This document shows, piece after piece, positions 20,754 through 38,939 of a DNA stretch of 60,731 bases. The notes beneath the pieces were generated by a model. That model did no database searches. It worked only from the letters and a program-made list of their open reading frames with translations, and was not told the origin of the DNA. Each line of letters starts with the position of its first letter. The stretch's first letter is position 1. Source of the DNA: a virus; the UHGV virus genome UHGV-1514873; one strand, written 5' to 3'. Both the position numbers and the translations under genes were made by a program.

Positions 20754-21917
20754 TTACACATCATTAGTACCTTCCTTATTTTTTGACTGGGACAAATTTG
20801 GGACCGATGGGTTCAGGATCGAGTCTATTTGCCGTGCGTGTTCGGTAAGGTGATTAGGTGCAAGGTGAGCATATCGACGAACCATTTCGATAGACTCCCA
20901 GCCTCCCATTTCCTGTAACACTGACAACGGGACTCCGGCTTGAACCAGCCAACTTGCCCAGGTGTGTCTCAAGTCGTGAAATCTGAAATCATCAATACCA
21001 GCCCGTCTCAGCGCCGCTTTCCAGGCTGTGTTTGCGTCATACCGCATCTTCCTTACTGTTGGCGCTTTCGTTCCGTCTGGTTTGGTACAGCTTTCCTTGT
21101 ACACAAATACCCAACGGTGATGATTCCCGATTTGTTTTTTCAATACGCGACATGCAGTATCATTCAGCGCAACGCCAATTGCGCGGTTTGATTTACTCTC
21201 TTCCGGGTTTATCCATGCCACCCGGCGCTGCATATCTATTTGTTGCCATTCAAGGTTGATGATGTTCGAGCGTCTTAAGCCTGTTGCCAGTGCAAATTCA
21301 ACAACAGACTTTAATGGCTCCGGACATTCATCAATCAGCCTTTGTGCTTCATGGGGCTCCAGCCAGCGGATCCGTTTATTCTTTGGTTGAGGCACTTTAA
21401 TAATTGGTGCCTTATCCAGCATTTTCCATTCACGCTCTGCGGCTCTTAGTAGGGCCTTTATAAATGAAAGATGCGTAGCCTTCGTTGCAACGGACGCTGG
21501 TTTTGGCGTGTATTCTGGAACAGGTTTCCCTTTTTTTCTGCATGCTTCTGCCCTGAGTTTCCAGTTTTCCTCATGACGCCGGTTCGTCATTTTCTGCATT
21601 GCTGAATAAATTTTTGATTCAGTAATGTCTCTTAGTTGCATTCCTGCGAAATGTTGAAGCCAGAATCCGATCCGGCTTTTGTCATCGTCCAGTGATTTTT
21701 TATGTGCTTTCTCTTCAAGCCACCTGACACACGCTTCCTCGAACGTTATATCAGGTATTTCACCAAGTTTGCTGACCCGCCATGCTTCAGCCTTTAGCTT
21801 GTCATGGAGTTCTGTCGCCTGCCTTTTGTCCTTTGTTCCAAGAGACTGTTTAAATCTTTTACCGTTCGGCAATGTGAAACTGGCGTACCATATTTCACCT
21901 CTGCGGAAGAGTGACAT
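20754..21917 (-). CDS. int: tyrosine integrase, P22 Int-like
   Basis: 387 aa, near-identical to P22 integrase as recalled ([46 protein letters not shown]...). Confidence 0.95.
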
Positions 21918-24729: not shown

Positions 24730-25404
24730 TTAGGCTTTGATTTTGTATCTTCTTGGTTTTCCTGAGAAAATCACTGTACCAATTATAGAGCAATTACCGT
24801 TGATCTTAATGTAAGGCTCAGGCCAGTTTGGGTTTAACGCTTTGAGATAACGCTGTGTCCCATCTTCTATCAACCTTTTGAAGGTGGTTTCGCCTGTATC
24901 GTGCATCAATGCAATAACGTCGTCACCGTGGCAGGCAGGTACTTCAGGATCGACAAAAATCATGTCTCCCGGGCGGTACTCATCAATCATTGAATCACCT
25001 ATCACCCGCAAGATATAAGTCATTTCCCCACAGGGTACAGGGCAGGGATACGTTTCTGCTGTGCTCAAATCAACCTCAGAATATCCAACTTCTTTCCATG
25101 CTCCGGCCTGTACCCATGATATGACAGGGACTAATGTGATTTGTTTATTAGTGATTGAAACATCAGGTTTTTTTGTGATGTTCGTTGTCTGGTGTTCTTG
25201 ATCGAGCCATCCGACAGGCAGGTCGAAACATTTTTCGATGTGTCGTGCCATGCTGTCACCGATATTTTTAGTAGCACCATCTCCCATAAACCTGCTGGTC
25301 TGGGTTGGCTCGCGATCAATCATAGTGGCAAAGGAAGAATTCCCGCCAACACCATCTCTCAGTTTTCTGGCGTTAGACCGCCGGATGTCATGGATTGTTT
25401 TCAT
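24730..25404 (-). CDS. CI-like repressor (HTH + LexA-like S24 peptidase domain)
   Basis: 224 aa; C-terminal S24-type segment (VIGDSMIDEYRPGDMIFVDPEV); divergent from cro. Confidence 0.8.
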   Translation of the reverse strand: MKTIHDIRRSNARKLRDGVGGNSSFATMIDREPTQTSRFMGDGATKNIGDSMARHIEKCFDLPVGWLDQEHQTTNITKKPDVSITNKQITLVPVISWVQAGAWKEVGYSEVDLSTAETYPCPVPCGEMTYILRVIGDSMIDEYRPGDMIFVDPEVPACHGDDVIALMHDTGETTFKRLIEDGTQRYLKALNPNWPEPYIKINGNCSIIGTVIFSGKPRRYKIKA

Positions 25405-31255: not shown

Positions 31256-31272
31256 TTTTGTGGAGAAAGTTG

Positions 31273-31650
31273 ATGCGTGATATTCAGATGGTTCTGGATC
31301 GTTGGGGGGCATGGGCGGCGAGTGATAGTTCTGGGGTAGACTATTCGCCTATAGCTGCTGGGTTTAAAGGGCTTCTTCCCTATACAAGCAAAACACGTCA
31401 GGCTTGTTCAGATAGTGATGCATTAATTATTGAAGGTTGTCTTGCTCGTCTAAAGCAAAAAAGACCTGAAGAACACTCGCTTCTTGTTGCCCATTACCTA
31501 TACGGTATCTCTAAAAGAAAGCTCGCCAAGGCTCGTAAAAAGGATGAGAAACTAATACGCATTGAGATACAGATGGCTGAGGGGTTTATTGATGGCTGCC
31601 TATCGATGTTGGAAATTAGTCTAGAGATGGACCCCGAAGTTAAAGATTGA
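31273..31650 (+). CDS. Q: late-gene antiterminator Q (phage 82 type)
   Basis: MRDIQMVLDRWGAWAASDSSGVDYSPIAAGFKGLLP matches 82-type Q N-terminus; ATG 31273 with GGAG RBS. Confidence 0.8.
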   Translation: MRDIQMVLDRWGAWAASDSSGVDYSPIAAGFKGLLPYTSKTRQACSDSDALIIEGCLARLKQKRPEEHSLLVAHYLYGISKRKLAKARKKDEKLIRIEIQMAEGFIDGCLSMLEISLEMDPEVKD

Positions 31651-31656
31651 TTATTG

Positions 31657-31680
31657 AAGCCCGATTACTCGGGCTTTTGT
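31657..31680 (+). terminator. Rho-independent terminator after Q
   Basis: aagcccg/attact/cgggctt perfect 7-bp stem plus T-run. Confidence 0.6.
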
Positions 31681-32684
31681 TCCACATCTCGAACATAGAG
31701 AATTACTGCTGACTTAATGTCACCATCGACGTGTTTTGCGTTAATGCTCAAATGTACAGGCTTTCTTTCCCACTCAGCTCGCTGCAATGCTTCTTTGTTT
31801 CCGGATTCATCAAGGAAAACATCCTGAACTACGCAGGTTAGACGTTGGTCGGTATCTACGCGTCGGACCTTAACTTTGAAACTCTCTGGGTCAGTATTAT
31901 TGACTTCTTCAATTCGGTAAATACCATCAATCCTCATTTCTGATGAACGTCTACGAGCATTCGTAACCAACTCTTTCGCCATTTCAGAATCAATAGTAAC
32001 GCCATCAATTTGAGCGTTATCTGAACGCACAAAGGATTTGACCATTTGGGTTTTAGCGTCATACGACATACGGTCCATGTTATCGAGAAGTGGTTTTTCC
32101 GCAATCATTTCTGAAATAACCCGCAGGCGTTTAGTTTCTTGCTCGCTCATGATCTGCATAGTCCGGAGATGTTCTTTCTCTCCATCCTTAGCAATTTCTG
32201 CAAGGCGAATATCTTTGCGGTTGTCCAAGAACCGTTTAAATACTGTTACTCCGCCCCAGATGACTGCTGCGCCGAGAACAGTAAACATGATCTCAGTTGC
32301 GTTCATTTTACCAACAAGTTCCTGTGTGAGTTTGGTTAAAAAGCCATCAATGTTGATTTCTACTATTGAAGAACCCTGTTCTACCGTAACTTCTATTTCT
32401 AGGGCATCAAGTTCTTCTTTGGTCAGTTTGCGGACGTCAGGGACACCGTACTTGGCAAGGGCATATGATTTGTTGATTTGAGCTTGCATTTCAACAAATC
32501 CCTTCATAACTGAAGGTGTTAGCGATCTGTTGAATTTTTCACCGGTTAATCTGATGGTAAGGTTTGGCCATCCGTTGAAACTTAAACTGTCAGGTAAACC
32601 ATAACCATCAAGATAGCTTTCAAGCAAATCGAAGGCTTGCTGCTCAGATTCAATGTCTACATGAATCTCATCAAACTTATCCAA
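31665..32684 (-). CDS. unknown 339-aa protein with one central hydrophobic helix (moron between Q and late operon)
   Basis: AT-rich, opposite strand to all flanking phage genes; TTG start 32684 with GAGGA RBS; no family recognised. Confidence 0.6.
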   Translation of the reverse strand: MDKFDEIHVDIESEQQAFDLLESYLDGYGLPDSLSFNGWPNLTIRLTGEKFNRSLTPSVMKGFVEMQAQINKSYALAKYGVPDVRKLTKEELDALEIEVTVEQGSSIVEINIDGFLTKLTQELVGKMNATEIMFTVLGAAVIWGGVTVFKRFLDNRKDIRLAEIAKDGEKEHLRTMQIMSEQETKRLRVISEMIAEKPLLDNMDRMSYDAKTQMVKSFVRSDNAQIDGVTIDSEMAKELVTNARRRSSEMRIDGIYRIEEVNNTDPESFKVKVRRVDTDQRLTCVVQDVFLDESGNKEALQRAEWERKPVHLSINAKHVDGDIKSAVILYVRDVEQKPE

Positions 32685-33357: not shown

Positions 33358-34410
33358 ATGAAAAATACTGTAAAAATAAACAGTGTTGATTTAATCAACG
33401 CTGATTGCCTGCATTTTATTCAGTCCCTGCCTGATGATTCCATTGACCTGATTGTTACCGATCCGCCTTACTTCAAGGTGAAACCTAACGGTTGGGACAA
33501 TCAGTGGAAAGGGGACGAAGATTACCTTAAGTGGCTGGACCACTGTCTGGCCCAGTTCTGGCGGGTGTTGAAACCTGCCGGAAGCCTTTACCTGTTCTGT
33601 GGGCATCGCCTGGCATCTGATATTGAGATCATGATGCGTGAACGTTTCAACGTGCTTAACCATATCATCTGGGCGAAGCCGTCCGGACGTTGGAATGGGT
33701 GTAATAAAGAAAGTCTGCGCGCATATTTTCCTGCCACAGAGCGCGTTCTGTTTGCTGAACATTACCAGGGGCCATATCGCGGCAAAAGTGACGGCTATGC
33801 GGCAAAAGAAAGGGAACTCAAACAGCACATAATGGCACCGCTGATATCGTATTTCAGGGATGCTCGTGCCGAACTGGGTATAACGGCAAAACAAATTGCC
33901 GAAGCCACAGGTAAGAAAAATATGGTTTCCCACTGGTTTGGTGCCAGTCAGTGGCAGTTGCCGAATGAGGCTGACTATCGGAAGTTACAGGCACTGTTTT
34001 CCCGTATAGCGGCAGAGAAGTTTCAGGAACAACAACTGGAACAACCACACCACCAGCTGGTGGCATCTTATGATTCACTGAATCGCAAATATTCTGAATT
34101 GCTGGATGAGTTTAAATCTCTCCGGCGCTATTTCTCCGTATCAGTCTCCGTGCCTTATACCGATGTCTGGACGCATAAGCCCGTTCAGTTCTACCCGGGT
34201 AAACATCCGTGCGAGAAACCGGCGGATATGCTCCGGCAAATAATCAATGCCAGTAGTCGACCTGGTGATCTGGTTGCTGATTTCTTTATGGGATCCGGTT
34301 CCACAATAAAAGCAGCAATGGCGCTGGGGCGTCGGGCGTTAGGTGTTGAACTTGAGTCAGAGCGGTTTAATCAGACGGTGAAAGAGGTAAGTGAACTGGT
34401 GGGGAAATAA
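33358..34410 (+). CDS. DNA methyltransferase, beta-class (motif IV DPPY before motif I), orphan
   Basis: LIVTDPPYF near N-terminus and DLVADFFMGSGSTIKAA near C-terminus. Confidence 0.8.
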   Translation: MKNTVKINSVDLINADCLHFIQSLPDDSIDLIVTDPPYFKVKPNGWDNQWKGDEDYLKWLDHCLAQFWRVLKPAGSLYLFCGHRLASDIEIMMRERFNVLNHIIWAKPSGRWNGCNKESLRAYFPATERVLFAEHYQGPYRGKSDGYAAKERELKQHIMAPLISYFRDARAELGITAKQIAEATGKKNMVSHWFGASQWQLPNEADYRKLQALFSRIAAEKFQEQQLEQPHHQLVASYDSLNRKYSELLDEFKSLRRYFSVSVSVPYTDVWTHKPVQFYPGKHPCEKPADMLRQIINASSRPGDLVADFFMGSGSTIKAAMALGRRALGVELESERFNQTVKEVSELVGK

Positions 34411-34486
34411 TTCTGGTGGCCACGTTGCGTGGCCTTTTTATTTCCAACACAGCACCCGCAAATATCGCGAGGTGAGAGATGACGAA

Positions 34487-34822
34487 ATGTCTCATAACCC
34501 AAATACCTGGCCGGACTGGCTGGAGTTGTTTCAGAGCTGGTGGCGTGGAGACACACCGCTGGGTGCAGTGATTATGTCGATCGTTATGGCTGGTTTGCGC
34601 ATCGCCTATTTTGGCGGTGGTGGTGGCTGGAAGCGAAAAACGCTCGAGATTTTGCTATGTGGCGCTCTGACGCTGACCTTTGCATCCGCTCTTGAATATG
34701 TCGGATGGCCTAAATCGCTTTCTGTTGCCATTGGTGGTGGCGTGGGGCTGATCGGTGTCGATGCTATTCGTGGGGCTGCAATGCGAGTAATCGGTAACAA
34801 ATTTGGTAGCTCGAAGGAGTAA
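34487..34822 (+). CDS. holin, lambda S-like class I
   Basis: Three hydrophobic segments, charged C-terminus; internal ATG 34487 chosen. Confidence 0.7.
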   Translation: MSHNPNTWPDWLELFQSWWRGDTPLGAVIMSIVMAGLRIAYFGGGGGWKRKTLEILLCGALTLTFASALEYVGWPKSLSVAIGGGVGLIGVDAIRGAAMRVIGNKFGSSKE

Positions 34823-34825
34823 TTT

Positions 34826-35302
34826 ATGCAGGCACTAAATTCCCAGCGTAAAGCTTTCCTGGATATGGTGGCATGGTCAGAAGGAACGGATAACGGGCGA
34901 CAACCGACACGTAACCACGGTTATGATGTTATTGTTGGTGGCGAACTGTTCACTGATTACTCCGATCACCCTCGCAAACTTGTCACGCTAAACCCCAAAC
35001 TCAAATCAACAGCTGCCGGACGTTACCAGCTTCTTTCACGCTGGTGGGATGCTTACCGTAAACAGCTTGGCCTGAAAGATTTTTCTCCAGAAAGCCAGGA
35101 CGCTGTAGCTCTGCAGCAGATTAAAGAGCGTGGTGCTTTACCGATGATTGACCGCGGCAGTATTCGTCAGGCAATCGACCGTTGCAGCAATATCTGGGCG
35201 TCGTTACCTGGTGCAGGTTACGGTCAGTATGAACATAAAATCGGTGACCTGATTGCCCGATTTAAAAAAGCTGGTGGGGTAGTAAATGAGGCTGAGATAT
35301 AA
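34826..35302 (+). CDS. R: endolysin, lambda R-type lytic transglycosylase
   Basis: Near-identical to lambda R as recalled (QRKAFLDMVAWSEGTDNGRQPTRNHGYDVIVGGELFTDYSDHPRKLVTLNPKLKSTAAGRYQLLSRWWDAYRKQLGLKDFSP). Confidence 0.95.
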   Translation: MQALNSQRKAFLDMVAWSEGTDNGRQPTRNHGYDVIVGGELFTDYSDHPRKLVTLNPKLKSTAAGRYQLLSRWWDAYRKQLGLKDFSPESQDAVALQQIKERGALPMIDRGSIRQAIDRCSNIWASLPGAGYGQYEHKIGDLIARFKKAGGVVNEAEI

Positions 35303-35678
35303 GCTGGTTATTGTTGCCTTCGTTGTTAGCGTCATTGGTTCCTTCATCTGGTCTGCTGGACATTACTACAGCAAATATCAGCACGAAAAGGAGCGTGCTG
35401 ATGAGGCTGTACGAAATGCTGAATCAGCAACTGCCATTACCCGTAACGTTCTGCAATCACTGCAAATCATCAATACAGTTATAGAGGCTAACCAGCATGC
35501 AAAACAGCAGATCGCACTGGAGTCACAGAGAACCCAGGAAGATATCAAAGTGGCTGTTGCGGATGATGATTGTGCTTCACGTCATGTGCCTGCTGCCGCT
35601 GCTGACCGGTTGCGGAAGTACGCGAACAGTTTACGTGCCGGTTCCGGCGGTACCGCTGCCAACAAGCCTGACCACTGA
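35286..35678 (+). CDS. Rz: i-spanin Rz-like
   Basis: N-terminal TM helix followed by helical periplasmic domain; follows endolysin. Confidence 0.7.
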   Translation: MRLRYKLVIVAFVVSVIGSFIWSAGHYYSKYQHEKERADEAVRNAESATAITRNVLQSLQIINTVIEANQHAKQQIALESQRTQEDIKVAVADDDCASRHVPAAAADRLRKYANSLRAGSGGTAANKPDH

Positions 35679-35820
35679 AACGCCCCAGCCAGTCATTCCC
35701 GACCCGCTGACCTATGGGGCCAGTCTGGATCTGAATGTGAGCCTGCTTTCGGCGCTGGGCCAGTGCAACATCGACAAGGCCAGTATCAGGAAGATAGAAA
35801 CGTCACGCAACTCACAGTAG
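35563..35820 (+). CDS. Rz1: o-spanin Rz1-like lipoprotein, overlapping 3' end of Rz in another frame
   Basis: Lipobox LLTGC and proline-rich mature part; start Met uncertain (ORF opens 35497). Confidence 0.6.
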   Translation: MMIVLHVMCLLPLLTGCGSTRTVYVPVPAVPLPTSLTTETPQPVIPDPLTYGASLDLNVSLLSALGQCNIDKASIRKIETSRNSQ

Positions 35821-35859
35821 CCATTACAAAGCTCATCTGCGGGTGGGCTTTGTAATGGC

Positions 35860-36165
35860 TTATTCGTAGTTGTCACCAGGGAAGTATTCCTGAAACTTTG
35901 ATTTTGGGAGCTGGGTTTTCGCGAAGTTCGCAAGCCTTCCTCTTGTAAGCATGTAGTCACACCCACCTTCTTGTTTGAGAAGGTCACCAGCTAATGTCCG
36001 ATACACAACGTCACTTCGCAAAATTTCAATGGTGGAATTCCTGATGAGAAATGTTTCACACATCGGGCATCTAATTAACCAAGCGGTATCACGGTTCTGC
36101 CAGGTCGCATCTGAATTGCAAGCCGGGCAGCATTTCTGATCTTCTTGTCCTATGACCATTGTCAT
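35860..36165 (-). CDS. small Cys-rich (zinc-ribbon-like) protein, moron
   Basis: CCPAC...CPMC motif pair; opposite strand between lysis and packaging genes. Confidence 0.5.
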   Translation of the reverse strand: MTMVIGQEDQKCCPACNSDATWQNRDTAWLIRCPMCETFLIRNSTIEILRSDVVYRTLAGDLLKQEGGCDYMLTRGRLANFAKTQLPKSKFQEYFPGDNYE

Positions 36166-36238
36166 GCTCTCGCATAGTGAAGGAATTTTCAGATTAACTC
36201 ATTTTCAGACGCATCGTAATGGCTTAAGGAAACAATTA

Positions 36239-36589
36239 ATGCCACCACGTACACCAAAAGCCTGCCGCGTTCGCGGTTGCCGCAATACCACTACTGACCC
36301 GTCAGGCTATTGCGAAAGCCACAAAAGCGAAGGCTGGAAGCAATACAAACCAGGCCTGTCACGTCATCAGCGCGGCTACGGTTCGAAGTGGGACAGTATC
36401 CGCGCGCGTGTCCTGAAGCGTGACAAAGGCCTGTGTCAGTTATGTCTGCGTGCTGGTGTGGTGCGTGAGGCGAAGACCGTTGACCACATCATCCCTAAAT
36501 CGCATGGCGGCACTGATGTCGACAGTAATCTGCAGAGTTTGTGCTGGCCGTGTCATAAGGCGAAGACGGCCCGTGAACGGCTGAAGTAA
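36239..36589 (+). CDS. HNH endonuclease
   Basis: C..C...DHIIPKSHGG...C..CH HNH motif; typical position before terminase. Confidence 0.8.
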   Translation: MPPRTPKACRVRGCRNTTTDPSGYCESHKSEGWKQYKPGLSRHQRGYGSKWDSIRARVLKRDKGLCQLCLRAGVVREAKTVDHIIPKSHGGTDVDSNLQSLCWPCHKAKTARERLK

Positions 36590-36714
36590 GAACCAGTTCC
36601 CACTGCCAGAGGGGAGGGGCGGGTCAAATCCCTGTGACCTGACGTCTTCCGGACTGCCCGCCCCATCGTTTTTTTATACCCGCGAAAAATGAAATTTAAC
36701 CAGGAGTGCCGCAT

Positions 36715-37209
36715 ATGGCTGGAACGGCGGGGCGTTCCGGGCGTCGCCCCAAGCCAACGGCGCGCAAGGCGCTGGCCGGAAACCCCGGCAAGCGAGCCCT
36801 GAACAAAGATGAACCCGTTTTTACGCCCATCAAAGGTGTTGAGCCACCGGAGTGGTTCGCTGAAGAAGAGCTCCCTCTCGCCACGATCATGTGGCAACTG
36901 ACAACCAAAGAACTCTGCGGTCAGGGCCTGCTGTGCGTGACTGACCTCGCAGTGCTTGAGCGGTGGTGCGTGGCCTATGAGTTCTGGCGACGTGCCGTGA
37001 AAAATATTGCCAGACAGGGCAACACCATCACCGGTGCAATGGGCGGCATGGTCAAAAATCCGGAGCTGACCGCCAAAAAAGAACAGGAGTCCGAGATGAG
37101 CAGTACGGGGGCAATGCTCGGACTCGACCCCAGCAGCCGCCAGCGTCTGATTGGCCTGGCGGGGCAGAAGAAAGCCACTAACCCGTTTCTGAAAATTATC
37201 GAATCATGA
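36715..37209 (+). CDS. terminase small subunit, P27 family
   Basis: [15 protein letters not shown]-terminus; ATG 36715 with AGGAG RBS preferred over GTG 36706. Confidence 0.8.
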
Positions 37210-38939
37210 GCCGGAAATCTTACCCCAACGTAAATGCTGCCAATCAGTATGCCCGGGATGTCGTGCGCGGAAAGATTGTTGCCTGCCAGTTTGTGATTCA
37301 GGCCTGCCAGCGCCATCTTGATGACCTGATGGCGGAAAAAAGTAAGTCGTTTCGTTACCGCTTCGACAAGGACCTGGCTGAACGGGCCGCCAAATTTATT
37401 CAGCTGTTGCCGCACACCAAGGGTGAGTGGGCATTCAAGAGGATGCCCATCACGCTGGAGCCGTGGCAGCTCTTTGTGATCTGCTGTGCGTTTGGCTGGG
37501 TCAATAAAGGCTCCCGGCTGCGCCGCTTCCGGGAGGTGTATACCGAAATCCCCCGTAAGAACGGCAAATCGGCAATCTCTGCCGGTGTCGCCCTGTATTG
37601 TTTTGCCTGTGATAACGAGTTTGGCGCGGAAGTGTATTCCGGTGCCACGACAGAGAAACAGGCGTGGGAAGTCTTTCGCCCGGCGCGACTGATGTGTAAA
37701 CGCACGCCCATGCTGACGGAAGCGTTCGGGATTGAGGTTAACGCCTCAAACATGAACCGTCCGGAGGATGGCGCGCGGTTTGAACCGCTGATCGGTAACC
37801 CCGGTGATGGTTCATCACCCCACTGTGCGGTGGTGGATGAATATCACGAGCACGCCACCGATGCGCTTTACACCACGATGCTTACCGGGATGGGGGCGCG
37901 ACGTCAGCCACTGATGTGGGCCATTACTACTGCCGGGTACAACATTGAGGGGCCGTGCTACGACAAGCGACGGGAAGTTATCGAGATGCTCAACGGGTCG
38001 GTACCCAACGATGAACTGTTCGGGATCATCTATACCGTTGACGAAGGCGATGACTGGACCGACCCGCAGGTGCTGGAAAAAGCTAACCCGAATATTGGCG
38101 TGTCGGTTTATCGCGAATTTTTGTTAAGTCAGCAGCAGCGTGCGAAAAATAACGCCCGTCTGGCAAACGTCTTTAAAACAAAACACCTCAATATCTGGGT
38201 GTCGGCGCGTTCGGCGTATTTCAACCTGGTGAGCTGGCAGAGCTGCGAGGATAAATCACTGACCCTTGAGCAGTTCGAGGGGCAGCCGTGCATTCTGGCC
38301 TTTGACCTGGCGCGTAAGCTGGATATGAACAGCATGGCGCGACTTTATACCCGCGAGATTGACGGTAAAACGCATTACTACAGTGTGGCCCCGCGTTTCT
38401 GGGTACCGTATGACACGGTGTACAGCGTCGAGAAAAATGAAGATCGACGGACAGCCGAACGCTTTCAGAAATGGGTGGAAATGGGCGTTCTGACCGTTAC
38501 CGATGGTGCGGAGGTGGATTATCGCTACATCCTCGAGGAGGCCAAAGCGGCGAACAAAATCAGCCCGGTCAGTGAGTCACCCATTGACCCCTTCGGGGCG
38601 ACCGGGTTGTCACATGACCTTGCTGATGAAGACCTGAACCCCATCACTATCATTCAGAACTACACCAACATGTCCGACCCGATGAAAGAGCTGGAAGCGG
38701 CAATTGAATCGGGGCGCTTTCATCATGATGGCAATCCCATCATGACCTGGTGTATCGGCAACGTGGTCGGCAAAACCATTCCGGGTAACGATGATGTGGT
38801 GAAGCCCGTCAAAGAGCAGGCGGAAAACAAAATCGATGGTGCAGTTGCGCTGATTATGGCGGTTGGCAGAGCCATGCTGTACGAGAAAGAAGACACGCTG
38901 TCTGACCACATTGAGTCCTATGGGATCCGCTCGCTTTAA
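37206..38939 (+). CDS. terminase large subunit
   Basis: 577 aa; position between TerS and portal; conserved acidic motifs. Confidence 0.9.

Follow-up and report, generated by a model that had tools for sequence, protein, structure and literature searches.

Gene content around the locus

The window analysed here (the complete 60,731-nucleotide sequence of UHGV virus genome UHGV-1514873) represents an SfV-like, serotype-converting E. coli prophage with the following landmarks:

20754-21917: integrase
24730-25404: Peptidase_S24-family protein, typical of LexA/CI-type repressors (presumed role)
31258-31650: Q antiterminator
33358-34410 (plus strand): N6/N4 DNA methyltransferase, just upstream of the holin
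34391-35820: holin, endolysin, Rz and Rz1
35497-35820 (plus strand): Rz1/LysC (o-spanin), from the RefSeq annotation of a 99.9% identical prophage
36239-36589 (plus strand): HNH endonuclease (packaging accessory), with the RefSeq start used in identical prophages; Pfam HNH match at 7.6e-17
36706-37209: P27-type TerS (Terminase_4/P27)
37206-38939: TerL
55473-56522 (minus strand): Acyl_transf_3 gene
57246-59991 (minus strand): gtrA/gtrB/gtrC-type set (GtrA_DPMS_TM, Glycos_transf_2, Glucos_trans_II)

The last two entries lie at the far end of the prophage from the integrase and, as in SfV, are cargo for O-antigen modification and serotype conversion.

In the interval between Rz1 and the HNH endonuclease gene, the initial annotation had described a 101-aa minus-strand ORF containing CCPAC and CPMC and oriented opposite to the late operon. 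Such an ORF is indeed present when read from the first ATG (35860-36165, minus strand, both motifs inside), and its location and orientation were borne out by the ORF map and by the RefSeq flanks; its start was corrected to the more likely 36159, giving a probable product of 99 aa. The gene is part of a cassette of ~408–415 bp (35819-36235) made up of a leader with a putative promoter, the antisense gene itself and a hairpin held in common with the convergent Rz1 gene:

35819-35860 (no strand assigned): hairpin, inverted repeat I1 with a 13–14 bp core stem GCCATTACAAAGC / GCTTTGTAATGGC, recognised by folding z-scores
35852-35862 (plus strand): left-hand GTAATGGCTTA copy of an 11-nt direct repeat, overlapping the right arm of the hairpin and the moron stop codon
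35860-36159 (minus strand): moron gene, 99 aa plus stop (TAA, 35862-35860), delimited by homologue starts and dN/dS
36160-36226 (minus strand): 68-nt leader, a block conserved in four loci
36201-36193 (minus strand): candidate extended -10 element TGAGTTAAT (putative)
36206-36201 (minus strand): candidate -10 element GAAAAT (putative)
36216-36226 (plus strand): second (right-hand) GTAATGGCTTA copy, immediately next to AAGGAAA, the HNH ribosome-binding site

Coding potential and start site of the antisense ORF

ORF length was uninformative on its own, with 126 ORFs of at least 90 aa in the window, many of them shadow ORFs. Pairwise comparison (Nei-Gojobori) of the moron gene with four homologous loci at 77–87% nucleotide identity returned dN/dS values of 0.07–0.13, with substitutions piling up at third codon positions of the moron-gene frame (8/5/27 in one example), and the longest competing ORF on the opposite plus strand was no longer than 54 aa. 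Because of these low ratios, the third-position bias, the cysteines that are invariant in the family (see below) and the lack of a rival plus-strand ORF, the substitution record establishes the ORF as a genuine gene under strong purifying selection. A minus-strand ORF overlapping it (35712-35987) was rejected as a shadow ORF.

The second in-frame ATG (36159-36157) yields the 99-aa product. Other family members begin with MVIGQ or a close variant (MIVGL/MIIGM) and the nearest relatives are 99 aa long, while 101-aa calls from the upstream ATG were confined to database sequences that all but match the window protein. In addition, the second ATG is preceded at a distance of 7 nt by a Shine-Dalgarno-like GAGAG (36171-36167), which is only 1 nt away from the first ATG. 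Since both the family N-termini and lengths and the spacing of this element fit the second ATG, the true start is probably at 36159, with the upstream ATG at 36165 not used.

The exact 99-aa protein occurs in at least 1000 contigs of E. coli, Salmonella and Shigella, invariably labelled ‘hypothetical protein’. In both of the complete genomes inspected (2/2) the ORF had been left unannotated by RefSeq/PGAP, which amounts to an annotation gap for a gene under clear purifying selection.

Boundaries of the cassette and exchange of cargo

The distance from the Rz1 stop to the HNH start is 26 bp in phage SfV versus ~415 bp in the window, and a full-coverage insert was detected in just 32 of the 896 E. 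coli genomes having the flanks. GC content of the insert was 44.6%, compared to 50.9% for the lysis genes and 55.6% for HNH-TerL. Sister prophages were found to carry other genes at the same position: a late-strand GrlR-family gene with a canonical terminator in E. coli EH09-18-41 (locus L044, 2109-2429) and two minus-strand hypothetical genes of 189 and 111 aa in E. coli UMNK88 (locus L045, 1346-2351). Because of this alternative content, the interval from Rz1 to HNH is a site for cargo in general. The absence of the gene from SfV and its lower GC, taken with its own hairpin, its conserved leader and the other cargo of sister prophages, bear out the initial description of it as a moron, a concept introduced by Juhala et al. 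2000 (as cited in PMC10884400).

Between the stop codons of the two convergent genes, Rz1 and the moron gene, lie 39 nt, which the hairpin fills exactly; it folded far more stably than shuffled sequence (z-scores of -6.3 on the minus and -7.5 on the plus strand). No T-run follows it on the moron gene's own strand in the window; it may serve as a terminator in both directions or stabilise 3' ends. Related hairpins (CATTA[TC]C ... TGTAATG) were located 3' of the gene in most homologous loci, with both sides of the pair changed at 5 of 12 positions, and in one sub-branch (L020, L023 and L036) a canonical terminator with stem and T-run lies after the gene. The moron gene is thus provided with a downstream structure, both by the stable hairpin immediately after its stop codon and by the hairpins or terminators of homologous loci. 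A consensus terminator scan found none around it. Rfam searches of 35300-36800 gave only chance-level matches, over the hairpin. The same hairpin family, with a variable inner stem and compensatory changes, was seen 3' of the homologous gene in loci L005, L008, L009, L013, L014, L017 and L022, and also in HK022 (L016, 1206-1245) and the mEp phages, both of which are without the gene (42-bp match). The recurring CATTA[TC]C/TGTAATG hairpin may serve as a common terminator, or cargo may be exchanged by recombination at it.

At the other end of the cassette, the leader was conserved in four loci even though the sequence farther upstream was unrelated, and it carries repeated TCTGAAAAT / CTGA..TCAG motifs over the candidate -10. 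We infer that it is the putative promoter block of the cassette. A scan of 35400-36700 with the sigma-70 consensus passed no promoter, and the -35 region was not conserved in the window copy. Since the leader RNA folded no better than shuffled sequences (z-score of 0.12), a structured 5' UTR was discarded.

The two exact GTAATGGCTTA copies are 364 bp apart, against an expectation of 0.74 matches (with up to one mismatch) in the whole window. In the sister prophage with other cargo, a similar but not identical GTAATG arm, GTAATGATTGAAGG, precedes the HNH gene (L044, ~2500-2515). A search of E. coli genomes for an empty site retaining the hairpin and one copy of the 11-mer found none, only SfV-type empty sites and sites with other cargo, and a simple target-site-duplication model of insertion is unproven for this reason. 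With its sharp edges (hairpin, 11-nt repeats and leader), the cassette provides a clean example of moron exchange at the lysis/packaging junction.

Protein family and its distribution

An initial database search produced five homologue clusters with 61–99% identity, and a profile search extended these to 16 full-length homologue clusters (96–104 aa, 40–99% identity). Overall, the family comprised 17 clusters among 5.8 billion proteins, spread over prophages of E. coli, Salmonella, Shigella and Enterobacter. An exhaustive HMMER search of 1.84 billion representatives revealed nothing beyond the family itself and two repeat proteins. Alignment of three family members to 50,697 GenBank phages by tblastn gave no match, and in a scan of GTDB species representatives 0 of 19 pattern matches were confirmed as family members. 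One metagenomic homologue from ENA (P0006, 148 aa) is frameshifted, its C-terminal half entering the frame of the shadow ORF at 35712-35987 (minus strand); it looks like a decayed or mis-sequenced allele.

Residues C11, C14, C31 and C34 (99-aa numbering) were invariant in the 16 sequences with a CxxC-x16-CxxC spacing, and P12 was also conserved. Of the six cysteines of the window protein these four were conserved, while C10 and C67 vary across the family. Since C10 varies among homologues, the double cysteine of CCPAC is, on this alignment, incidental. Conservation in the C-terminal part was concentrated in DLLK, L71-T72, A77, A80 and a [FY]-P-G tail.

Wherever a phage context was recovered, across more than 10 unrelated lambdoid architectures, the family member stood alone as an antisense ORF, with the lysis genes on one side and the first of the packaging genes on the other. 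Adjoining packaging modules included HNH+P27 (window), DUF1441+GpA (lambda type), Terminase_2+Terminase_6, ParB_N+Terminase_6C and Mu-F/portal_3, as well as DndB-containing loci. Among the IMG/VR loci, a family member was present on 18/18; antisense placement was seen in all eight that were ORF-mapped, and the flanks were identified by Pfam in three. Late-strand neighbours were often DNA-handling genes (HNH, GIY-YIG, ParB_N, TAGT of the DpdA-like kind and DndB). As judged from these neighbourhoods, the gene has been established as horizontally mobile among lambdoid phages with unrelated lysis and terminase modules. Because the family adjoins at least four different packaging modules, the same neighbourhoods exclude that it is tied specifically to HNH or to the P27 terminase; on that ground the gene is not a known regulator of the HNH or terminase genes, a finding that would have spoken against the initial annotation.

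No conserved partner gene, such as a self-immunity gene, recurred consistently in the loci examined. Small same-strand ORFs near the family gene in L010-L013 were considered and proved to be neither paralogues nor conserved partners. The most divergent members (Logan contigs L023-L025) are convergent to a DndB-family gene and a gene of 181–185 aa, and have TraI_2 and a tyrosine integrase as neighbours, which places the module also in an integrative element with no obvious lambdoid prophage character.

Predicted structure and profile matches

AlphaFold2 (AF2) modelling from the 16-sequence alignment gave a pLDDT of 85.7 and a pTM of 0.70, with four of the five models in agreement. The predicted protein divides into two parts:

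36040-36144 (minus strand): N-terminal C4 zinc-ribbon domain, residues ~6-40, from invariant cysteines, AF2 strands and sub-threshold Lar matches
36129-36127, 36120-36118, 36069-36067 and 36060-36058 (minus strand): codons of the predicted zinc ligands C11, C14, C31 and C34, respectively
35884-36039 (minus strand): C-terminal four-helix domain, residues 41-92, from AF2 helices and conservation

The ribbon consists of four strands (residues 6-10, 17-23, 26-31 and 35-40) modelled at a pLDDT of ~90, and the C-terminal domain of helices 41-49, 51-64, 73-83 and 86-92. The four invariant cysteines and the four-stranded ribbon agree with the earlier reading of the product as a zinc-ribbon-type protein, and the model points to a novel two-domain protein combining a zinc ribbon with a four-helix domain, in which zinc binding is predicted. 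With a pI of 5.4 for the window protein (4.9–7.7 across the family) and no hydrophobic leader, the product is predicted to be a soluble, slightly acidic, cytoplasmic protein without a signal peptide.

Structure comparison returned no solved structure and no predicted viral structure resembling the moron protein, and the best match in a sequence-profile search against PDB chains was an ArfGAP finger with a non-significant E-value of 0.18. No curated family in Pfam, NCBIfam or PHROG exceeded its threshold, and no catalytic-domain family was matched. PF14354 (Lar_restr_allev) was the top Pfam family for 16/16 members (best E-value 1.4e-5), although in all 16 the score remained below the gathering cut-off of 28.6 bits (25.7 for the best member and 17.6 for the window protein) and the alignment was confined to model positions 4-33 of 58, corresponding to the generic ribbon part. 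Three ‘Lar-like’ PHROGs also matched weakly, and the best E-value with TIGR03655 was 0.012. Searches of PADLOC-DB v2 gave no significant defence-model match, the best being 0.0092 (DolA, one member) and 0.021 (LmuB, six members); for the window protein itself nothing was found at 0.01. The profile search proposed in the initial annotation therefore brought out a resemblance of the ribbon to the Lar type (PF14354), but all scores were sub-threshold and neither a curated family nor a defence family could be assigned.

For the C-terminal part, a local profile match was obtained between helices 3-4 and the repeats of P0009 (hhalign probability of 79.5% over 26 columns; E-value of 1.4e-9 for the C-terminal segment when summed over repeats). 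P0009 is an 869-aa metagenomic protein with eight tandem ~62-aa repeats ending in ...AKxKLxxEEYQxRFP. As a whole it scored 32.6 bits against Pfam HTH_32, just below the cut-off of 33.7, and its repeats taken singly matched no HTH model. No HTH domain was recognisable in the moron protein by profile or by fold. A further candidate relative, P0010, was dropped as a generic zinc-ribbon repeat protein.

Comparison with known systems

With the Lar family (PF14354, TIGR03655; prototype Lar of the Rac prophage) the moron protein shares the general plan of a small phage protein built on a C4 ribbon, and the CPxC...CxxC layout is reproduced in the modelled ribbon, whereas the score over the whole Lar model stayed below threshold. 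It differs from Lar by an extra, unrelated four-helix domain of ~55 residues and by gene position: lambda ral and Rac lar, the known genes for restriction alleviation, belong to early operons in the early recombination or pL region, while the moron gene is antisense in the late region.

Slot and orientation are instead those of lambda bor and other right-end morons, which likewise display presence/absence polymorphism, deviant GC and a hairpin of their own. The bor gene is antisense, downstream of Rz/Rz1 and before cos/terminase, and Bor is a secreted lipoprotein. By comparison, the N-terminus of the moron protein, MVIGQEDQKCCPAC (MVIGQEDQK), lacks both a hydrophobic leader and a lipobox, the two proteins are dissimilar in sequence, and the Bor family was absent from the Pfam, NCBIfam and PHROG results.

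Two small prophage proteins that act as blockers of assembly or packaging offer a possible functional parallel. Tab of the P. aeruginosa phage JBD26 blocks incoming phages and is encoded next to the terminase genes (PMC10884400), and TerI of Listeria phi10403S, which also blocks incoming phages, is encoded on the other strand from its neighbours and expressed in the lysogen (bioRxiv 10.1101/2025.02.27.640495); both are ~65–85 aa long with no known domains (PMC10884400; bioRxiv 10.1101/2025.02.27.640495). Together with the moron protein they form a set of stand-alone products of 65–99 aa (without known domains in the case of Tab and TerI) encoded inside the lytic modules of temperate phages. 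Tab and TerI belong to other hosts and show no sequence or fold kinship with the moron protein, and they have self-immunity logic or partners, whereas the moron family has no conserved partner gene.

Finally, the CX2C-X16-CX2C spacing is also that of several generic ribbons (the YjdM/PhnA N-terminal ribbon, the PaaD ribbon, YacG and ArfGAP-type fingers), whose models matched several members weakly (Pfam E-values of 8e-4 to 0.02). Because these matches were sub-threshold and limited to the metal-binding knuckles, leaving the C-terminal domain uncovered, no function was transferred from them.

Proposed function and alternatives

At a probability of roughly 50%, we favour a reading in which the locus is a self-contained moron cassette whose 99-aa product, a predicted binding protein, would be made when the late operon is silent and would serve as a phage conflict gene. 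Since Q-antiterminated late transcription would run head-on through the moron gene, expression would be expected from its own promoter while the late operon is silent, in the lysogen and/or just after DNA entry. The protein would then act stoichiometrically and non-catalytically via a partner macromolecule, most probably a protein of a host nuclease/restriction-modification (R-M) system or of a superinfecting phage, in Lar-type restriction alleviation or superinfection exclusion and not as a regulator of HNH or terminase. A conflict role is favoured because of the Lar-type ribbon, the bor-like antisense position in the late region and the precedents of Tab and TerI. The overall reading is weakened by the absence of a PADLOC match and of a partner gene, by a Lar likeness limited to the generic ribbon, by the early-operon location of ral and lar, by the negative sigma-70 scan and the unconserved -35 region, and by the missing T-run on the moron gene's own strand; the strict placement could instead signify a role at cos/pac or at late-transcript ends.

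Within a conflict role, we give roughly equal weight to a Lar-like modulator of nuclease or R-M systems and to exclusion of other phages. The lysogenic conversion or exclusion suggested in the initial annotation is a conjecture from position and orientation; the sub-threshold Lar-type resemblance of the ribbon would point, if anywhere, to anti-restriction rather than exclusion. In cos phages of this type the right virion DNA end is packaged last and, in lambda, injected first. The moron gene starts its inward reading direction less far than ~1 kb from that right end; by analogy with lambda the end would enter first, which would suit an anti-restriction role.

A more specific version, which we put forward tentatively and consider rather doubtful, is that the gene defines a new single-protein conflict family with an unseen fold, a Lar-type ribbon joined to a novel four-helix domain. 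Should its end of the DNA enter first, as in lambda, the gene might be the first to be expressed and could neutralise a host nuclease or R-M system ahead of the remaining genome; equally, it might stay active in the lysogen and exclude competing phages, with the shared CATTA..TAATG hairpins acting as recombination joints that move cassettes between lambdoid phages.

The predicted architecture also raises the prospect of a small DNA-binding transcription regulator, acting on host or phage promoters and possibly on its own leader. A zinc ribbon followed by an HTH-like C-terminus is the architecture of IS1 InsA, and the two-domain AF2 model with its C-terminal bundle of 3–4 helices, the match of that segment to P0009 (itself near the HTH_32 cut-off as a whole), the repeated leader motifs over the candidate -10 and the GrlR-family regulatory gene in the same slot of a sister prophage are all consistent with it. 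We nonetheless think a regulator unlikely: 0/16 members matched any Pfam HTH family, even at an E-value of 10, and the single P0009 repeats fared no better; the acidic to neutral pI of the family is unusual among sequence-specific DNA binders; and the turn between the putative HTH helices, at 7–8 residues in both sequence and model, exceeds that of the canonical motif.

Constant placement at the lysis/terminase junction in all phage contexts examined could, in turn, reflect an accessory function in packaging or at the genome ends, for example in modulating terminase/HNH cleavage, in handling late transcripts or in guarding the first-entering DNA end. The hairpin and leader do lie within a few nt of the stop codon and ribosome-binding site of the neighbouring late genes, and those neighbours often handle DNA. 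Such a function appears very unlikely given that the gene is dispensable (absent from SfV and most sister prophages), that the junction is a generic cargo hotspot, that at least four non-homologous terminase systems accompany the family, against any specific packaging partner, and that a gene antisense to the late operon should be poorly expressed during packaging. It is similarly improbable that the sequence is a selfish or neutral passenger, held by linkage and by recombination at shared hairpins, or a conserved non-gene. The missing annotation, the rarity of the family and the lack of an assignable function would all accord with a passenger, but dN/dS of ~0.1 across lineages near synonymous saturation, combined with invariant metal ligands, demonstrates selection on the protein; the confident AF2 model indicates a folded product, and the frameshifted copy P0006 is a singleton.

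As it stands, the locus represents an ordinary phage moron encoding an uncharacterised protein family and would not surprise a phage specialist. Confirmation of the proposed conflict function would add a small protein family to the prophage genes for anti-restriction or superinfection exclusion.

A second variable slot in the same prophage

A 339-aa antisense ORF without Pfam or PADLOC matches is located in the window at 31665-32684 (minus strand), between Q and the methyltransferase/holin genes. In the prophage of E. coli KSC1031 (NZ_CP019560), near-identical elsewhere, the Q-holin slot is occupied by a KwaB-like protein and a hypothetical gene (L001, 55-1466). Because its contents differ between the window and KSC1031, we regard the Q-holin slot as a second moron/defence slot. 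Locus L014, which has a member of the moron family, encodes a 350-aa N6_N4_Mtase at the same place as the window methyltransferase.
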